Source: an uncultured Actinomycetota bacterium (GTDB taxonomy: Bacteria > Actinomycetota > Actinomycetes > Mycobacteriales > CADCTP01). From it: a DNA stretch of 64,000 bases. Of the stretch, positions 39,895 to 49,885 are shown piece by piece. Within the stretch, counting starts at the first letter, position 1. Each line of letters opens with the position of its first letter. Under the pieces are notes generated by a model. The model made no database searches, was not told the origin of the DNA, and was given only the letters and a program-made list of their open reading frames with translations. A program made the position numbers and the translations under genes. The stretch is from NCBI GenBank assembly GCA_963766325.1, contig CAVXZF010000007.1, positions 935,794 through 999,793 of the forward strand, written 5' to 3'.

Positions 39895-41257
39895 CTAGTC
39901 CGCCCGGTGGCGCGACGCGCCGATGACCTGCCAGACCGCGTCGGCCAGCGCCGGATGGCAGATGTCACTGTGCGCGCCGGAGGGGCCGGAGCCTTCCCGG
40001 ACGACCCCCGCCGCGTCGAGGTTCAGGACGACGCCCGGCCGGAGCTCGAGTGGCTTGCCTTCCACCGGGAGGACGTCGTCGGCCACCGCCACGCCGGGCC
40101 CGCGGACCCCCCAGACGCCGATGCCGCCGAACGTCGGCAGCTGGCCGGGACCGAAGTCGACCTGGTTCCGCAGGCCGGCCCCGATCGGATAGAACGCCCG
40201 GACCGCGCGGTCGTGCAACGACGTCGTCACGAGGACGGACCCGGTCACGAGGCCGTCGGCGACCAGCCGGTGGAAGTAGCCCGAGCGTCCCGGCCGGGAC
40301 GGGATCGACGCGCAGAAGGACCACAGCGACATCGCTCCCTGCACGAGCACCAGCGACGCGACCGGCACCGGTGCGATCCGGGCCGCCGGCCGCCCGGCCA
40401 CGGCGGCGGAGACGACGATGCAGCCGAAGCTGTGCCCCATCAGGTGGAGGCGCGCGCCGGGCGCCTCCCGCCGGAGGCTGCGGAGCAGCTCCGCGACCCC
40501 CGCTCTCCCCGACGATCCGGGCCCGGCGCTTCATCTGCCAGAAGGTGAACATCCGCAGCGGCGCCAGCAGGCCTCCGAGCGAGCCGCCGCCGTACGACAC
40601 GATCTCCTCGAGCTGGAACGCGCGGTAGACCTCATCCGCGTCGAAGGGAACCCGGTCGTCCCCCGGCGCCTCGCCCTCGCCGCCGGCGCCCAGCCCGAGC
40701 TCGGCGTCGATCGTCCGGTACGCCCGGCGCACCGGCTCCGGCAGGCGCCGCGGTGCGGCGTCGTCGAGCGCCGCGAGCACCACCGTCCGGACCGCCTCCC
40801 GGATCGCCGGGGAGTCGCCGAGCCGCTCGGCGTACCGGGCGACGAGCGCTTCGACCTCGTCCTGCGGGGCCGGCGGCGCGGGCGGCGGCGCCGCCGATGT
40901 CTCGGCCGTGAAGGAGGACGGCCCCAGCTCCTCGTCCCCCCACGCCTTGCTCGGCCAGTGCACCCCGACCAGCAGGGTCCGGAACTCCCCCGGCCGCTCG
41001 TCCGGTCGCTCCCGGGCCTCGCGGGCGGCGAGCATGGCCTCGATCCAGCGGCCGTACTGCTCCCGCGCGGCCGGCACATCGCCCTGCCAGCCGTGACTGA
41101 AGACGATGACGTCGGTGGGGCGGGCGGAGCCGGCCTCCGCGAGGGCACTCGCGGAGGAGGCCTCGCCACCGTCGTCGCGCTCCGTGCCGGACGCGTCGTA
41201 GCTGACGAGGTGGTAGTGGGCGTCGCGGTCGGCCACGGTCTCCAGGGCCACGGTCAC
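39895..41257 (-). pseudogene. alpha/beta-hydrolase (GHSFG serine nucleophile), last gene of the CHAT-SIR2 operon; reading frame broken at the C5 run 40497-40501
   Basis: Frame A runs from the GTG at 41257: VTVALETVADRDAHYHLVSY...VIVFSHGWQGDV...MFTFWQMKRRARIVGESG. Frame B continues VAELLRSLRREAPGARLHLMGHSFGCIVV...SLHDRAV...GAHSDICH (Ser-Asp-His order). Deleting one C in the run restores a single ~453-aa ORF. This could equally be a homopolymer sequencing error. Confidence 0.65.
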
Positions 41258-42672
41258 TCCCCACCGGTGCGGTACGCCCGGACGGCCGGGTCGCCGAGCA
41301 GGACATAGTTGCGGGCGTCGTGGTTGGCGGTCCACAACGCGGCGAGGGTGCGGTCGTCGATGATCCGGCCGAACTTGCGGTACTCCTGCATCCGGCTGGT
41401 CAGCTGGGTGGCGACGGCGGCGTACTTCGAGTTGACGTACTCCAGCGCGTGGCCGATGCGGAGGCCGTCGACCGTCGCTCGCATCGCGCTCGCGATCGCC
41501 GAGATCTGCGGGTCGATGCCGTTCCAGAGGAAGGAGCAGCTGAAGGCGCGGTCGACGTGCCCGACGAAGGCGAGCGCCGCACCGGCCCCGGTGCCCAGCA
41601 GTCGCTGCGGCAGCCGGGCGAGGAAGCCCCGCTCGGCCAGAACGGGATGGTCGTCGAAGTCGGACTCCCGGGGGGTGCCGGCGCCGTAGCAGGAGAAGGA
41701 GAAGACCACCCGCGGTCCGACCGCCCGGTCCGCCGGGATGTCCCGCCCGGCCAGGTAGTGCGTCTCGTCGACCCGTCCACCGCCGAGCAGGGGACCCTGC
41801 CACTCCTGGCAGAGGAGCGCTCCCTGCGCCTCCCGCTGGTCGGGACCGGCGGATCCCACCCCGTGCGTCGCCGTGAAGAGGACGGCCGGCCCGCCCGGCC
41901 CCGTCATCAGCTGCAGCAGCCTCTCCCGGGTCGCGGTGGCACCGACGTCCTGGGTCACCTGGAGGCCGGCGCCGAGGTCGACCAGCTCCTCGGCCAGCGG
42001 CTCGACCAGCCGGGACGCGCTGAGCGCGGTCGCCGTGTCCCCCGGATTGCGGGTGCCGAAAAGGTGGACGCGGCGGGCGGGAGCGTTCACACCCGGCGCC
42101 GCGGGTGCCTCGGGCGCCGCCGGCGCCTCGGCGGCGACGACCGCCGCGGCGTAGGCGGCGTACTCGGCCGGGGTGTCGAAGTGCAGCCGCCCCACCGCGT
42201 GCTCGACGTCGAGCTGGTACTGGAACGGGAAGGGGATCGCGTCGGGATCGCCGACGAGGAGCAGGTAGTACGGCATCCTGCGGGGATCGACCGGCCCGGG
42301 CGCGGTGCCGTGCCGGATCAGGAACGCGTCATCGTCCTCGTCCGGCAACCGGACCAGCTCCCGGTAGCGGTCGCCGGCCTGGGCACGGCGCAGGGTCCGC
42401 AGCGGCTCCAGCGCCGCCAGGATCTCGGGGTCGACGTCGTCGGCGGTGACCAGCGCCCATCCCGCCGAGGCGAGGTCGTCCGGGTCCGCTCCGTACATCA
42501 CCCCCAGGTTGGCCTCGTCGTCGGCGCGGCGGCGCCGAAGCGCATCGGCGTGCCGGCCGGCCGGCGGATGACCGCGCACCGACGCCGCGAGCGTCGCCAC
42601 CGACGAAGCGGGGAAGAGGTAGCCCCCGGTGTCCAGGTCGACCCCGTTGAAGAAGACCAGGTCGTCGGCCAT
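41254..42672 (-). CDS. clan-CD cysteine peptidase-like protein (gingipain C25/caspase-like His-Cys dyad)
   Basis: 472 aa. MPYYLLLVGDPDAIPFPFQ, VLFTATHG (His270) and VVFSFSCYGAG (Cys328) give the His-Gly...Cys order typical of clan CD. Its stop overlaps the next start (GTGA). Confidence 0.6.
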   Translation of the reverse strand: MADDLVFFNGVDLDTGGYLFPASSVATLAASVRGHPPAGRHADALRRRRADDEANLGVMYGADPDDLASAGWALVTADDVDPEILAALEPLRTLRRAQAGDRYRELVRLPDEDDDAFLIRHGTAPGPVDPRRMPYYLLLVGDPDAIPFPFQYQLDVEHAVGRLHFDTPAEYAAYAAAVVAAEAPAAPEAPAAPGVNAPARRVHLFGTRNPGDTATALSASRLVEPLAEELVDLGAGLQVTQDVGATATRERLLQLMTGPGGPAVLFTATHGVGSAGPDQREAQGALLCQEWQGPLLGGGRVDETHYLAGRDIPADRAVGPRVVFSFSCYGAGTPRESDFDDHPVLAERGFLARLPQRLLGTGAGAALAFVGHVDRAFSCSFLWNGIDPQISAIASAMRATVDGLRIGHALEYVNSKYAAVATQLTSRMQEYRKFGRIIDDRTLAALWTANHDARNYVLLGDPAVRAYRTGGE

Positions 42673-42675
42673 CCA

Positions 42676-44145
42676 TCAACCCAGCACGAGGACGAGGATC
42701 ACGACCAGCTCGATGACGGCGATCACCGAGACGATGGTCAGCGTGTAGCGGTAGGCCTGGAGCAGGAAGCGGTTGCCGACGTCCTCGTAGGACTCCCGGA
42801 GGAAGTCCCGCTCGAAGTCGGCGAGGTCCTTCCGCCGGACCGAGGGCGCCGTGGACAGCAGCTCCGACTTCAGCAGGAAGGCGCGTTGCCGGTTGTTGGC
42901 GACCCAGTCCAGAGCGGCGTTCTGCCACGGCTCGAGGTGGTCGTGGCGCCAGGCCCGGTTGCTGGCGCGGACCGCCGGGATCAGCCGGTCGTGCGCCAGC
43001 TCGTACCAGGTCGTCAGTCCCCGGGTGTCGCTGTTGACCAGGAACATCTCCCGCAGGCGGGTGAGGATCTCCCGCTCGTGGTCCCCGGTGACCGGCGGGA
43101 TGGTCGTCTGGCTGCGGAAGCCCTGGGCCGTGATCAGCTGGTGCTCGAACCAGTCGCGGATCAGCCGCTCGCTCGCGCCGAAGCTTCGGGCGAGCTCGCC
43201 GACGGAGTCCGAGTAGTAGCGGGTCAGGGCGCGCTCCACGTCCACGTGGCGCTCGACGTCCTCATCGTCGATGACGTGGAAGTCGCCCTTCGCCTTCCGG
43301 ACGTCCTTCCACAGCCGGCGGCACACCACCTGAAGCTGGAACGGCTCCACATAGGGCGCCAGCTTCGACTCCACCCCGTGCTCGGGCGCCTGCACCTTCG
43401 TCTGCGAGAGCTTTGTCACCAGCAGCTGGGCCGCCTCGTCGGTGACCGTGACCCCCTGCGCCGCCGCCGGCTTCCGGATCGCCGCGATCGCCTCCCGGTG
43501 GGTGAGGAAGTCCAGGCGGTAGCGCGAGCGGAGGTGACCGGGCACGAACCGCAGGCACCGGTCCATCCCACCGATGTAGTCCTCGCGCATCGCCAACAGG
43601 ACCCACAGCCCACGGTCGGCGATGGCTGCGCCCAGCTCCCGGAAGAACTGCTCCTTCGCGGCCCAGTCGGTCGGGTCGAGGGTGAGGATCTCCTCGACCT
43701 GGTCGAACACGACCAGCGGCAGCCGGCCCCGCTCGGCCGGCGGGAGCGCGCGGGCGAGGATCTCGCTGAGCGTGAGTTGACCGAGCTCGGGCGCGACCCC
43801 GTCCCCGTCGCCGAGCAGGTAGAGCGCCACGCTGAAGACGTAGCGGTTGTGCACCTTCCATGGGCGACCGTCGGCGTCGGTCGGCACCGGCTTGTCCACC
43901 CGCAGCGGTCCGACCGCGTGGAAGCCGTCGAGCAGCGGGAGGACCGCCGCCTGGATGATGGACGTCTTCCCGGCTCCGGAGGGAGCGTGCAGGAGCACGA
44001 CGCGCTCGGAGATGACGAGGTCGGCGAGCTCACGGGCCTCCCGCTCGCGGTTCGGCAGCCGCTGGTCGCGGCCGAAGGGGAACGGCCCGACGTACGGGTT
44101 CCGCGGCGGAGCCTTCCGGCCCGGTGCCGGCGCGCTGATCGTCAT
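42676..44145 (-). CDS. STAND-like P-loop NTPase with a C-terminal transmembrane anchor
   Basis: ATG at 44145 overlaps the upstream TGA (ATGA). NPYVGPFPFGRDQ...VVLLHAPSGAGKTS (Walker A), RLPLVVFDQVEE (Walker B, hhhhDQxEE). The last 23 aa, YTLTIVSVIAVIELVVILVLVLG, are hydrophobic. The track ORF to 44310 is an extension. Confidence 0.7.
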   Translation of the reverse strand: MTISAPAPGRKAPPRNPYVGPFPFGRDQRLPNREREARELADLVISERVVLLHAPSGAGKTSIIQAAVLPLLDGFHAVGPLRVDKPVPTDADGRPWKVHNRYVFSVALYLLGDGDGVAPELGQLTLSEILARALPPAERGRLPLVVFDQVEEILTLDPTDWAAKEQFFRELGAAIADRGLWVLLAMREDYIGGMDRCLRFVPGHLRSRYRLDFLTHREAIAAIRKPAAAQGVTVTDEAAQLLVTKLSQTKVQAPEHGVESKLAPYVEPFQLQVVCRRLWKDVRKAKGDFHVIDDEDVERHVDVERALTRYYSDSVGELARSFGASERLIRDWFEHQLITAQGFRSQTTIPPVTGDHEREILTRLREMFLVNSDTRGLTTWYELAHDRLIPAVRASNRAWRHDHLEPWQNAALDWVANNRQRAFLLKSELLSTAPSVRRKDLADFERDFLRESYEDVGNRFLLQAYRYTLTIVSVIAVIELVVILVLVLG

Positions 44146-46241
44146 GGCAGCCCGGTCCGGGTGCGGAGCTGATCCAGGAAGGAGCGGGTGTCGGACCAGA
44201 AGATGTTGACCCGGTCGGGGCCGAAGTAGGCCTCGAGGTAGCGCTGGGCCGCCTCCCGCTCGATCACCTGGCTCTGCAGCTTGAACTGGACGCCGACGTG
44301 GTCGTCCCAACGGTCCTTGAGGTTGAAACTCTTGATGCTCTGGAACACGACCCGGAAGTCCCAGTCCTCCAGGCGGTAGCCGAGGAAGAGCAGGGACGTC
44401 CCGGTGAGCGCCGCCTTCACGGCCGGCGGGACTATCTGCCGGATGTCCTTCTTCACGATCCAGGCGTCCAGCCAGTCGAAGTAGTCGTCCTCGGTCAGGA
44501 CCAGCGAGCGCGGTTCCGTGAGGCGCCCGAAGAGGTGGTACACCCAGGGCTCAGCCACGGACGGCGGATCGACGCTCGCCGGGTCCTCCCCGAGGAGGTC
44601 CCAGCCGATCCCGTCCGTCCACGGAAAGCAGATCGTTCGCGGCCTCTTCTCGGGCTGGACGTCCGCCATGGCGTCCTGCAGGAGGCCCGTAGTGCCGGTG
44701 GTCACGAAGATCTTGGCGGGCATGGACGCCACGACGCGGAACGGGTCGCCCTTGTCCGCGGCTCTGAGCCGCCGGCCGACCTCGAGGATCGCCTGCTCCG
44801 GCGTCCCGCGCTCGAGGATCTCGGGCGGAAGACCCCGGAACGGGTCGTCCCCCCGGGCATTGGTGACCCGCTCCTGCAACTCCGTGCGCAGGTATTTCTG
44901 GAGCTCTCCCGGCACCATCGCGCGGTTGTGGCTCACCCGAAGGTACTGGGCGACCTGGGCGAAGTTGTTCACCGCATGCGCGGCGATCGGCATTTGCCAT
45001 CGGCGCGCCCACCGGCGGGCCATCGATTCCCGCGAGCCCAGAATGCCGTCGGCCAGGCCCGGCCCGAGGACCGGAGTGAAGCTCCCGTTCTCGATCATCG
45101 TGTTGAGGATCTGCCAGGTCGCCTCGGCCCGGTCGGTGAATCCCGGCTCGTACCGCAACCGACCGGAGCGCAGCCGGGAGAACAGCACCGGCACCCACCA
45201 GTCGTCCCGGTCCCGGACGGCCTGGCGACCCACCGCCACCGCGGCGTCGACGACGGGATCCTCGGCCAGCGCCGCGAAGAAGGCCCGCGCGAAGTCGGAG
45301 GCGGTCCGCATGCTGACGTTGCCCTGCATCGCCACGACCGCCGCGACGCCGGACGCGGCCAGCCGCGGTCCGATCGCCGCGAGCGCGCCCCCGTCCTCGC
45401 TGTAGCGCTGATCGCCCACCCCGGCCGACTGGCAGGAGCTCAGCAGGACCACTGTGGGCCGGCGGGCGAGGTCACGCACCCGCTCCTCCATCCGCCGGGC
45501 GTCCACCGGGTCGGCGGTGCCGTCGGCCTTCTCGAGGAAGAGCAGCGGCACGTCGGACGTCTGCACGCCGTGCCCCACGACATAGAGGATGTCGAATCCC
45601 TCGTCCAGCTTCGCCAGCATGGCGGCGAGGGTTGCCTGCCCGCGGCCGGCGAGGACGACGGGACGGAAGGGCGCGAGCGCCTGCTGTGCCCGGTGGAGCT
45701 CGAGCGGGACGTCCACCGGCGCCAGCCGCGGACGTCCGGGCGTCTCGTACCCGTCCAGGTCGCTCGGGTCGGCGATCACCACGAGCGCCCGCAGCTCGCT
45801 GTCCGGCAGCTCGGACACCGGCCGCCAGTCGCCGCTGAGCAGATACCGGGAGAAGAGCACGTTCTGGCTGGTCGCGAGCGGCGAGCCGGTCCGAGGGTCC
45901 CGCATCGTCTCCCAGCGCACGGAGTGGAACCGCGCCGGTCCATCGACGTGCAGCCGGAAATGGAGCGGCACGTCGCGGGCCGCGGTGCCCACCCGGGTCA
46001 GGAACCGGCGCACTTCCTCGTCGGCGAAAAGCCACTCGGTGAGGCGCTCCCCGTACTCGGCCTCGTCGTTCGCCAGCTGGCCGAGCGCCGCCAGATCTAC
46101 TTGCACCGGCCGCTTGGGATGGGAACTGAAGTCCTCGAGGGCGTGGCCCAGCTGCCCCGTGAAACGGAGACTGACATCGAACGAATGCTGCACCGTGTCC
46201 CACACGAGGCCGAACTCGAAGTCGGCATAAGCGGCAGCCAC
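44142..46241 (-). CDS. CHAT-domain (caspase-like) protease fused to a C-terminal SIR2-like (SIR2_2-type) domain
   Basis: 699 aa. GTG start with a GGGGGA RBS. CHAT motifs: FDILYVVGHG (His224), PTVVLLSSCQSAG (Cys270), AAVVAMQGNVS. SIR2_2-like motifs: FTPVLGPGLADGILG, IFVTTGTTGLLQDAM, VYHLFGRL...LVLTEDDYFDW, SLLFLGYRLEDWDFRVV. Confidence 0.7.
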   Translation of the reverse strand: MAAAYADFEFGLVWDTVQHSFDVSLRFTGQLGHALEDFSSHPKRPVQVDLAALGQLANDEAEYGERLTEWLFADEEVRRFLTRVGTAARDVPLHFRLHVDGPARFHSVRWETMRDPRTGSPLATSQNVLFSRYLLSGDWRPVSELPDSELRALVVIADPSDLDGYETPGRPRLAPVDVPLELHRAQQALAPFRPVVLAGRGQATLAAMLAKLDEGFDILYVVGHGVQTSDVPLLFLEKADGTADPVDARRMEERVRDLARRPTVVLLSSCQSAGVGDQRYSEDGGALAAIGPRLAASGVAAVVAMQGNVSMRTASDFARAFFAALAEDPVVDAAVAVGRQAVRDRDDWWVPVLFSRLRSGRLRYEPGFTDRAEATWQILNTMIENGSFTPVLGPGLADGILGSRESMARRWARRWQMPIAAHAVNNFAQVAQYLRVSHNRAMVPGELQKYLRTELQERVTNARGDDPFRGLPPEILERGTPEQAILEVGRRLRAADKGDPFRVVASMPAKIFVTTGTTGLLQDAMADVQPEKRPRTICFPWTDGIGWDLLGEDPASVDPPSVAEPWVYHLFGRLTEPRSLVLTEDDYFDWLDAWIVKKDIRQIVPPAVKAALTGTSLLFLGYRLEDWDFRVVFQSIKSFNLKDRWDDHVGVQFKLQSQVIEREAAQRYLEAYFGPDRVNIFWSDTRSFLDQLRTRTGLP

Positions 46242-49226: not shown

Positions 49227-49619
49227 TCACCAGTCGGCGAGCTCCAGGTCGGTGCACGGGAAGTCGTCGCCGACGCAGAGCAGCGGCTCGGCGGCGATCC
49301 GGGCGACCGCGTACGTCAGGCAGTCGCCGAAGTCGAGCGCCGCGCGGTGCCGACCCTTCCCGTACCGGGTGAAGGCGTCGACGGCCACCGTCCAGTGCCC
49401 GGGCCCGACCGCGATGACGTCGGCCGAGGTCTCCTGGACGAAGCGGGCGAGCAGGCTCTTGCCGGGGACGCCGAGCCGGGAGACCAGCACCATGCCGGTC
49501 TCGGCCAGCGTCGGACCGCCGACGGCGAGCCGCTCGGCGCCGGCCAGCGCGTTGACCAGGCGCTTGTGGTCCGGCTCCTGCAGCAGCACCGCGATGATCG
49601 CCGAGCTGTCAACGATCAC
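49227..49619 (-). CDS. vapC: type II toxin VapC (PIN-domain ribonuclease)
   Basis: 130 aa from the GTG at 49619: VIVDSSAIIAVLLQEPD...DFGDCLTYAVA...LCVGDDF (PIN acidic residues). 4-nt GTGA overlap with vapB. Confidence 0.85.
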   Translation of the reverse strand: MIVDSSAIIAVLLQEPDHKRLVNALAGAERLAVGGPTLAETGMVLVSRLGVPGKSLLARFVQETSADVIAVGPGHWTVAVDAFTRYGKGRHRAALDFGDCLTYAVARIAAEPLLCVGDDFPCTDLELADW

Positions 49620-49885
49620 AGCCCGTCCGGCCCGTAGCCGAGGACGTCCTCGCGCTCGGTCTTGGTGACCGCTCGGCGCCGCGCGGCCGCCGGCACCTGC
49701 GGCCACACCTCGTCGGTGAGGAAGGCGGTCAGCCGCTCGGCCCGCTGCCCCGCCGACCGGCGCAGCAGCCGCTCCCGACGCTCGGTCAGCGCCACTCGGA
49801 CCGCCCGCGTCTTGGTCTCGTGGGCGAGGGCGGCGACCTCGGCGGCGAGCCGCTCGGTCTCCGGGTCCTTGATGTTCAGCGCCAT
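49616..49885 (-). CDS. vapB: type II antitoxin VapB
   Basis: 89 aa, MALNIKDPETERLAAEVAALAHETKTRAVRVALTERRERL. Sits immediately upstream of, and overlaps, the PIN toxin gene. Confidence 0.8.
   Translation of the reverse strand: MALNIKDPETERLAAEVAALAHETKTRAVRVALTERRERLLRRSAGQRAERLTAFLTDEVWPQVPAAARRRAVTKTEREDVLGYGPDGL

Follow-up and report, generated by a model that had tools for sequence, protein, structure and literature searches.

The SIR2-like half of a CHAT-SIR2-like protein from an uncultured Actinomycetota bacterium is predicted to retain the fold of the NAD+-cleaving SIR2 domains of bacterial defence systems, and alignments indicate that it has lost the catalytic residues of the NAD+ site. 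The protein is encoded in a stretch of 64,000 nucleotides, called the window in the following (contig CAVXZF010000007.1 of assembly GCA_963766325.1, positions 935,794 to 999,793 of the forward strand), directly upstream of a gene for a STAND NTPase of the nSTAND1 type. In the family to which it belongs, the site is degenerate in many members, the domain is under purifying selection and the nSTAND1 neighbor is retained at most loci. The reading that we favor, and to which we give about an even chance, is that the domain has lost its NADase activity and is retained as a coupling or assembly module between an effector and nSTAND1, with the CHAT protease as the working effector and a co-encoded C25-like peptidase, with or without an alpha/beta hydrolase, as the downstream or partner protease.

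The CHAT-SIR2-like gene (44142..46241, minus strand) starts with GTG and ends with a stop codon at 44144-44142; it stems from the list of open reading frames (ORFs) and carries Pfam matches to CHAT and SIR2_2. The long ORF of 699 residues is taken as the real gene, since full-length relatives found in a profile search of a 50%-clustered library measure about 690-720 residues. Homologs of 551-578 residues in a 90%-clustered database are truncated gene calls. The SIR2-like domain comprises residues 375-699 (44145..45119, minus strand). A preliminary description of this DNA, made from the letters alone, had assigned it the span 45119..44142, which corresponds to these residues plus the stop codon, and had correctly placed its motif blocks, namely FTPVLGPGLADGILG at residues 388-402, IFVTTGTTGLLQDAM at 511-525, VYHLFGRL at 567-574 (within a block extending to 590) and SLLFLGYRLEDWDFRVV at 616-632. 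The SIR2_2 match covers residues 555-644 (E 7e-16, 59 bits vs. a cut-off of 24.5) and spans only positions 31-112 of the 141 profile positions, whereas relatives with the sequence TTNPD match positions 2-136; this late start indicates independently that the protein has an aberrant TT region.

An AlphaFold2 model of residues 370-699, computed with 109 homologs in the alignment, reached a predicted local distance difference test score (pLDDT) of 92 and a predicted template modeling score (pTM) of 0.91. Foldseek searches with this model against the PDB returned SeThsA (7uxt; E 1e-10, template modeling (TM) score 0.60), KomC (9v0g) and BcThsA (8btp and 8bto) as top matches and EcThsA, DSR2 and EfAvs5 (9jap) as further ones. 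For ThsA, KomC and DSR2 the E-values ranged from 1e-10 to 1e-7 at TM scores of about 0.6, and the matches to ThsA, KomC, DSR2 and Avs5 all had a probability of 1.00. Approximately 118 helical residues sit between strand 1 and the strand carrying the TT motif, from which it follows that the lid subdomain is kept. Both hallmarks of the defence-type SIR2 architecture, the Rossmann fold and the helical lid, are thus found by modeling, structure comparison and Pfam. Judged by the model, residues 375-699 form a real defence-type SIR2 fold of the ThsA/KomC/DSR2 type, and the possibility that the region would not model as a SIR2 fold at all, which the preliminary description had named as fatal to its assignment, can be set aside.

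The register at the NAD+ site was derived from three alignments, i.e., a HMMER search of the family profile against the PDB sequences, an hhalign comparison (97.9% probability) and a BLASTP pair (E 1e-6), with the latter two giving the same ungapped register as the first. In the profile search, the family profile segment vYvTTnptdLLedAL is aligned with TYWTTNYDRLIEKAL of BcThsA and IYTTNYDKHVEGAL of KomC, and the segment PlVYhLFGrldepdSLVLteDDY with AVVYKMHGDVEHPSEAVLIKDDY of ThsA and VIKFHGTLDQPDTIVLTESSY of KomC. The deposited inactive mutants 8bto (TTAYD) and 9v12 (TTAYD and KFAG) are altered in exactly these columns. The sequence TTGTTG at residues 514-519 (44685..44702, minus strand) stands in place of TTNxD, with G516 at the position of BcThsA N112 and T518 at that of D114; both the Asn and the Asp of the motif are consequently missing. 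The pairing of TTGTTG with TTNYD, made by eye in the preliminary description, and the loss of the conserved Asn and Asp that was deduced from it are therefore borne out by the alignments that it had called for. Its further statement that the catalytic His is retained as H569 does not hold: in the sequence HLFG (residues 569-572; 44526..44537, minus strand) all three alignments place F571 on ThsA H152, the catalytic His of the HG motif, and H569 on ThsA K150. The catalytic His of KomC, which was changed to Ala in 9v12, also aligns with F571, so that the protein has FG instead of HG, with a His two positions before. In addition, F501 (44739..44741, minus strand) corresponds to ThsA H97, the His of the sirtuin PxxxH..LA motif, in the profile search and in hhalign. 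The phosphate-contact loops have retained their glycines and lost both serines: GPG at residues 393-395 of GPGLA (45057..45065, minus strand) is equivalent to the sirtuin GAGxS, with A397 at the Ser position, and GYR at residues 621-623 (44373..44381, minus strand) replaces the G[FY]S motif, with G621 kept and R623 at the Ser position. As far as can be judged from these equivalences, the divergence of the site is more extensive than previously claimed and includes the catalytic His, the PxxxH His and both Ser contacts.

The exchange of N112 or H152 for Ala abolishes both NAD+ cleavage and NAD+ binding in ThsA (PMC7272460), and in PaAvs5 immunity is lost upon N110A or D112A exchange (bioRxiv 10.1101/2025.07.08.663546). 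PaAvs5-1 has NG rather than HG and depletes NAD+ all the same, with N110, D112 and E202 being essential; in Avs5 proteins as a whole, NG and HG have similar frequencies (bioRxiv 10.1101/2025.07.08.663546). The decisive loss in the protein studied here would be that of the Asn and the Asp, together with the changes seen as F501, A397 and R623, and the argument for inactivity rests mainly on the Asn/Asp pair.

The SIR2 part retrieves 360 proteins from the 90%-clustered database, and its profile matches 9047 representatives of the 50%-clustered library at E ≤ 1e-3 and 1825 at E ≤ 1e-30. Residue frequencies were determined for 145 of the best 150 of these representatives. Position 516 is Asn in 55% and otherwise Asp, Thr, Ser, Gln, Ala or Gly, and position 518 is Asp in 51%. 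At position 571, Phe is found in 128/145 (88%) and His in 1/145, whereas position 569 is His in 102/145 (70%) and else Gln, Tyr, Arg or Cys. The Ser position 623 is occupied by Arg in 51, Gln in 47 and Ser in 5 of the 145 (Arg/Gln 68%, Ser 3%). Of the loop glycines, G393 occurs in 144/144 and G395 in 115/144 sequences, with Leu, Thr, Ala, Ser or Val at position 397. Conservation of ≥87% is found in over 40 columns; G393, G572, G621, Q432 (97%), D585, W627, R630 and Q652 are conserved at 96-100%, and the acidic residues E584, D585 and D626 are likewise well conserved. In the same proteins the CHAT residues H224 and C270 are each found in 97%, vs. 55% for N516.

Controls with ThsA homologs (51-100% identity, n=118-120) gave N112, D114 and H152 in 100% (Asn and Asp in 118/118), and the Ser of the G[FY]S motif, S197, in 102/108 (94%). 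On a tree of 254 sequences built by the unweighted pair group method with arithmetic mean (UPGMA), with changes counted over 321 columns, position 516 underwent about 84 changes, which corresponds to the 44th percentile of columns, and the Asn state was switched at least 54 times; G393, G572, G621, Q432, D585 and R630 changed at most seven times each. The clade of the protein itself, whose members are 45-66% identical and come mainly from actinomycetes, reads TT[GAS]WT[DN], and the protein and its closest relative (P0001) read TTG(T/L)TG. Judging by these alignments, the degenerate NAD+ site is a property of the family and not a quirk of the single protein. The reading in which the domain does not act as an NADase is favored. 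Across the family, the positions of the NAD+ site change about as freely as other columns, while 97% of the proteins retain the CHAT dyad.

N516 and D518 tend to be found together (Fisher p 6e-6), and a His at position 501 is present in 79% of the members with both Asn and Asp vs. 31% of those without the Asn, which is why part of the family, to go by this co-occurrence, may keep an NAD+ site. H569, on the other hand, is not associated with N516 or D518 (Fisher p 0.15-0.46). A clean split into an active and a dead clade was considered and rejected, given this lack of association and the at least 54 switches of the Asn state on the UPGMA tree. A single representative of the 145, P0228 (1265 residues), has a His at the canonical position (VFHLHG); its CHAT domain is preceded by a long N-terminal extension, and the protein could be instructive as an intermediate.

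The presence of H569 in 70% of the representatives and the good conservation of E584, D585 and D626 might be taken to indicate a non-canonical enzyme that cleaves or transfers NAD+ or another nucleotide with a rearranged site, for example one in which H569 acts together with these acidic residues. Such an enzyme would have a precedent in PaAvs5, which is active without the His of HG and needs E202 (bioRxiv 10.1101/2025.07.08.663546), and would also account for purifying selection on the domain. However, the protein lacks both the Asn and the Asp, each of which is essential in ThsA and PaAvs5, H569 is replaced by Gln, Tyr, Arg or Cys in 30% and is unlinked to N516 and D518, and the EDDY sequence as well as the acidic residue that follows G[FY]x belong to the generic SIR2_2 scaffold, since ThsA has both. 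We therefore regard a rearranged active site as quite improbable.

Values of dN/dS, the ratio of non-synonymous to synonymous substitution rates, were 0.23-0.25 for the SIR2-like part and 0.17-0.22 for the CHAT part in the two least saturated gene pairs; most pairs were saturated, so that only these two closest ones are informative. In all pairs compared, the SIR2-like and CHAT domains show similar identity. The SIR2-like domain is under purifying selection and no simple relic. A functionless remnant, decaying after the loss of activity, would fit the disappearance of the canonical catalytic residues, but is contradicted by a dN/dS close to that of CHAT, by the more than 40 strongly conserved columns, by the confident AlphaFold2 model and by the retention of the module in at least 1825 clusters, all of which makes it a most improbable explanation.

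The preliminary description had offered two readings, one in which the domain is not an NADase and one with a different catalytic arrangement, perhaps unmasked by CHAT cleavage. The first is favored, since the Asn, the Asp and both histidines (the canonical one and that of PxxxH) are lost together with the two serines; its specific form, an NAD+-binding sensor, is not supported, as the N112A exchange in ThsA eliminates NAD+ binding as well (PMC7272460). In a broader form, the degenerate pocket might control CHAT allosterically by binding, but not cleaving, a nucleotide or a small molecule derived from NAD, comparable to SAVED or to the SLOG domain of ThsA. The retention of the Gly-rich loop (G393 100%, G395 79%) and of the lid subdomain would be in line with such a function, as would the conservation of the AQY motif shared with SeThsA (Q432 97%) and the presence of Arg or Gln instead of Ser at position 623, as either residue could interact with a phosphate. 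The wide variation at positions 397, 516-519 and 623 is, however, unexpected for a conserved ligand site, the loss of NAD+ binding in the ThsA mutant speaks against it here, too, and no signal-generating enzyme, such as a TIR protein or a cyclase, is encoded in the operon or its flanks. Taken together, a ligand-sensing domain appears unlikely.

Evidence for the favored reading also comes from gene linkage. The nSTAND1 gene (42676..44145, minus strand; 489 residues; Pfam nSTAND1 E 2e-25, 90.6 bits) begins with an ATG that overlaps the stop codon of the CHAT-SIR2-like gene (ATGA, 44142-44145). It encodes a Walker A motif (GAGKT; 43963-43986, minus strand) and a Walker B motif (LVVFDQVEE; 43690-43716, minus strand), so that, as is characteristic of nSTAND1-type conflict systems, a Walker A/B NTPase is encoded beside its effector. 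The family occurs in 278 stretches of GTDB genomes, and gene order was counted at 80 loci from such genomes, 78 of which have enough downstream sequence. CHAT precedes the SIR2-like domain in 80/80 loci, and in 71/78 the next gene after the SIR2-like domain encodes nSTAND1. The hosts are Actinomycetota (Amycolatopsis, Kibdelosporangium, Lentzea, Nocardioides and Cellulomonas), many Chloroflexota and some Desulfobacteraceae, with the family being found mostly in filamentous Actinomycetota and Chloroflexota. A second CHAT-SIR2 copy, in tandem or nearby, is present at loci L039, L065 and L079, and a second nSTAND1 at L032 and L039.

The SIR2-like module with an HLFG-type strand is also found in EAD1-SIR2 (P0092 and P0093), TIR-SIR2 (P0165) and CHAT-TIR-SIR2 (P0151) proteins, and the EAD1-SIR2 genes likewise precede nSTAND1 genes, with stop and start codons touching. 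From these CHAT, TIR, CHAT-TIR and EAD1 variants it follows that the SIR2-like module and nSTAND1 form the constant pair and that the N-terminal element is interchangeable. An adaptor domain at the N-terminus is lacking in nSTAND1 itself, where the Pfam match begins at about residue 17 as counted from the Met start. The constant pairing of the SIR2-like module and nSTAND1 with varied N-terminal effectors points to a coupling or assembly role of the SIR2-like module.

Close to its C-terminus, the nSTAND1 of the window contains a hydrophobic helix of 19 residues (42682-42738, minus strand; Kyte-Doolittle maximum 3.1). A hydrophobic helix is found at about residues 455-495 of nSTAND1 in every long-form relative examined (L013, L017, L025, L036, L083 and L086), where it is followed by 700-1200 residues comprising WD40, Amidase_2 and other domains, whereas in the window's version the helix is not followed by a sensor domain. 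nSTAND1 may be anchored in the membrane with an extracytoplasmic sensor, and the version of the window is maybe tail-anchored without a sensor. The short form of the window could also be accommodated if the inactive SIR2 domain itself were a decoy that captures phage proteins aimed at SIR2 NADases and then triggers CHAT, similar to a proposal by Kaur et al., and inactive enzyme domains are indeed recurrent in the conflict systems of multicellular bacteria (Kaur et al., 2020). In most relatives, however, nSTAND1 itself includes a large sensor region, WD40 or other, the active-site positions are averagely variable rather than hypervariable, and diversifying selection is not evident (dN/dS 0.2-0.5). 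A bait function is accordingly considered very unlikely.

The nSTAND1 gene is followed, after a gap of 3 bp, by a gene for a C25-like clan-CD peptidase of 472 residues (41254..42672, minus strand), which has weak Pfam matches to Peptidase_C25 and CHAT. Its His270 (41863-41865, minus strand) and Cys328 (41689-41691, minus strand) are, together with G271, invariant in 16 orthologs. The gene is present in 35/80 loci, and its profile found no relative among the PDB sequences or the PADLOC models. A gene for an alpha/beta hydrolase comes next (39895..41257, minus strand), with a GHSFG elbow (Ser at 40429-40431) and weak Pfam matches to Abhydrolase_8 and Abhydrolase_1; its GTG start overlaps the stop codon of the peptidase gene (GTGA, 41254-41257). 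The ATGA and GTGA overlaps and the 3-bp gap between nSTAND1 and the peptidase suggest a tightly coupled operon of four genes. The hydrolase frame is split by a -1 shift in a run of five G (five C on the plus strand, 40497-40501), and its orthologs at L004, L006, L007, L013 and L044 are single ORFs; the frame break is either a sequencing error or the mark of a recent pseudogene. The hydrolase is found in 6/80 loci, the closest actinomycete relatives included, and pairs of alpha/beta hydrolases and caspases are recurrent in conflict systems of multicellular bacteria (Kaur et al., 2020).

Two natural fusions bear on the relation between these proteins. In P0158 (1177 residues) the C25-like peptidase is fused to the C-terminus of CHAT-SIR2, and at locus L004 (8990-11602; Amycolatopsis sp. 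NPDC049691) the nSTAND1 ORF is in frame with the C25-like peptidase, giving a protein of 872 residues without the hydrophobic helix. These fusions suggest that CHAT-SIR2, nSTAND1 and the C25-like peptidase act as one complex. Two further candidates were rejected. The C-terminal 500 residues of P0158 were considered as nSTAND1 (BLASTP E 0.14) and are the C25-like peptidase just mentioned, and P0116, considered as a natural SIR2-nSTAND1 fusion, derives from the fragmented locus L002 (ERZ25039463 contig_43946), in which the C-terminus of SIR2 is out of register. The gene calls at L002 are CHAT, SIR2 with the N-terminal part of nSTAND1, the C-terminal part of nSTAND1, and WD40, and L008 is also fragmented by frame changes. 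Such fragmented metagenome loci are probably due to indel errors of long reads, yielding false fusions such as P0116.

The CHAT domain is a caspase-like protease domain of clan CD (residues 62-347; 45201..46058, minus strand; Pfam E 5e-24) with the His-Gly...Cys dyad of its class. The catalytic His224 (45570-45572, minus strand) is kept in 127/131 and Cys270 (45432-45434, minus strand) in 131/135 cluster representatives, and H224-G225 and C270 are invariant among close relatives. The closest solved fold to this half is the SAVED-CHAT filament 8tl0 (Foldseek E 8e-8). The PADLOC model SAVED_CHAT also matches the protein (E 1e-5), covering only the CHAT part (residues 132-367), and the PADLOC ThsA matches are weak and limited to the SIR2 core. 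An Arg-rich linker between the two domains (FSRLRSGRLRY, residues 353-363; 45153..45185, minus strand) is visible in the alignment of relatives, with L353, R356, L357, R358, G360 and R361 nearly invariant. Related caspase-like proteases are Arg-specific, and by analogy with these the linker is a candidate site for processing or autoprocessing.

ThsA, KomC and DSR2 are activated by higher-order assembly, and the solved active defence SIR2s assemble in filaments. According to the favored reading, the nSTAND1 NTPase would switch on and oligomerize, and the SIR2-like domains would then assemble in the same manner as these active SIR2s. This assembly would gather the CHAT domains and activate them by proximity. 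Active CHAT would be the effector and would probably process the co-encoded C25-like peptidase, with or without the alpha/beta hydrolase, which would amount to a two-step proteolytic cascade. In a more far-reaching form, the SIR2-like pseudoenzyme might be the bacterial counterpart of a CARD or death-fold adaptor, that is, a constant platform through which nSTAND1 nucleates and switches on exchangeable effectors (CHAT, TIR or those recruited via EAD1) in an apoptosome-like two-tier cascade, following the same logic as in SAMD9/SAMD9L and with nSTAND1 possibly anchored in the membrane via its hydrophobic helix. This adaptor-platform model is put forward tentatively, as a possibility less probable than its negation.

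Several points weigh against the favored reading. The FG sequence alone is no proof of inactivity, because the NG-type PaAvs5-1 is an active NADase, and since Asn and Asp are both kept in approximately 38% of the family, mostly together with H501, some members may be real NADases in which the domain would be primarily an effector and only secondarily a coupler. The retention of G393, G395 and the helical lid is still compatible with some nucleotide binding, and the conserved polar residues H569, Q432, E584, D585, R630, H648 and Q652 may line the pocket. In addition, an adjacent nSTAND1 gene is missing in 7/78 loci. Finally, the fold, the residue equivalences, the family statistics, purifying selection and gene linkage are what the data show; the inactivity of the domain, its docking to nSTAND1, the activation by proximity and the cascade are inferences.

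A comparison with known systems shows several partial resemblances. ThsA, KomC and DSR2 are like the protein of the window in the fold with its lid, in the order and spacing of the motifs, and in the AQY, DDY and G[FY]xxD scaffold motifs. In contrast, their active-site Asn, Asp and His are Gly, Thr and Phe here and their Ser contacts are Ala and Arg, and the SLOG domain, the HAM1 partner and the tail-tube sensor of these systems are absent from the protein, whose SIR2-like domain is instead joined to a protease and has a STAND NTPase as its partner. The Pfam analysis of the operon and its flanking genes revealed no TIR, SLOG or Macro domain and no cyclase, so that neither the TIR partner ThsB nor the SLOG/Macro sensor of Thoeris is present. 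Avs5 has the same linear order of SIR2 and STAND, with STAND-driven assembly controlling the N-terminal module; approximately half of the Avs5 proteins likewise lack the His of HG, having NG, and EfAvs5 (9jap) is a structural match. However, Avs5 is a single chain whose TTNxD is intact and essential, whereas here two separate genes are coupled by the ATGA overlap and TTNxD is lost; moreover, the SIR2-like domain carries a CHAT protease, and the NTPase, which has a hydrophobic helix, falls into the nSTAND1 clade. The system of the window does not have the single-chain arrangement of Avs5 and was not matched by any of the PADLOC Avs models.

In the eukaryotic SAMD9, a non-catalytic SIR2-like domain lies between effector and STAND, and SIR2/SIR2 contacts are required for activity (PMC13600222). 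SAMD9 and SAMD9L thus share the order of effector, SIR2-like domain and STAND with the system described here. SAMD9 differs in being a single chain with a tRNase effector and in having no lid subdomain, which the bacterial protein keeps, and a search of the family profile against the PDB sequences detected no sequence relationship between the two. The SAVED-CHAT protein of type III-B CRISPR becomes active upon filament assembly and cuts another caspase-like protease (PCaspase). Here as well, CHAT is fused to a regulatory oligomerizing domain and a second caspase-like peptidase is co-encoded, but the regulator is SIR2-like rather than SAVED, a STAND NTPase is the switch, and CRISPR or a source of cyclic oligoadenylates is absent. 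The nSTAND1/EAD conflict systems (Kaur, Burroughs, Iyer, Aravind 2020-2021) share nSTAND1, caspase-fold effectors, EAD1 variants and the pairing of hydrolase and caspase, and are, like the family studied here, enriched in filamentous Actinomycetota and Chloroflexota. A SIR2-like module as constant partner of nSTAND1 is absent from the searchable texts of these papers, in which the term SIR2 occurs 0 times (2020 paper) and once, in another context (2021 paper).

The operon of the window is flanked by housekeeping and metabolic genes (acyl-CoA dehydrogenase, amine oxidase, Zn-dependent alcohol dehydrogenase, a PucR-type regulator and pirin). At a distance of 3 kb, a VapBC-like pair of a PIN domain protein and an Rv0623-like antitoxin is encoded (49227-49885, minus strand).

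In bacterial immunity, SIR2 domains are regarded as effectors that deplete NAD+. A search of the literature for CHAT-SIR2 and inactive SIR2 yielded no account of the CHAT-SIR2 family, and there is no PADLOC or NCBIfam model for the system; NCBIfam leaves the four operon proteins unnamed, save for a sub-threshold caspase_w_EACC1 match. The parts as such, i.e., the SIR2 fold, CHAT and the STAND NTPase, are known, and what is new is a SIR2 domain under relaxed catalytic constraint with a constant STAND NTPase partner. It is found in a large family (at least 1825 clusters at 50% identity, E ≤ 1e-30) in which NADase chemistry is evidently not what selection maintains, and the compact operon of four genes makes the system directly testable. 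If the coupling role is true, an NLR-like bacterial switch would activate a caspase-like protease without death-fold adaptors, and the family would be an independent case of the SIR2-pseudoenzyme logic of SAMD9/9L. It would also be a warning that the annotation SIR2 does not imply NADase activity.

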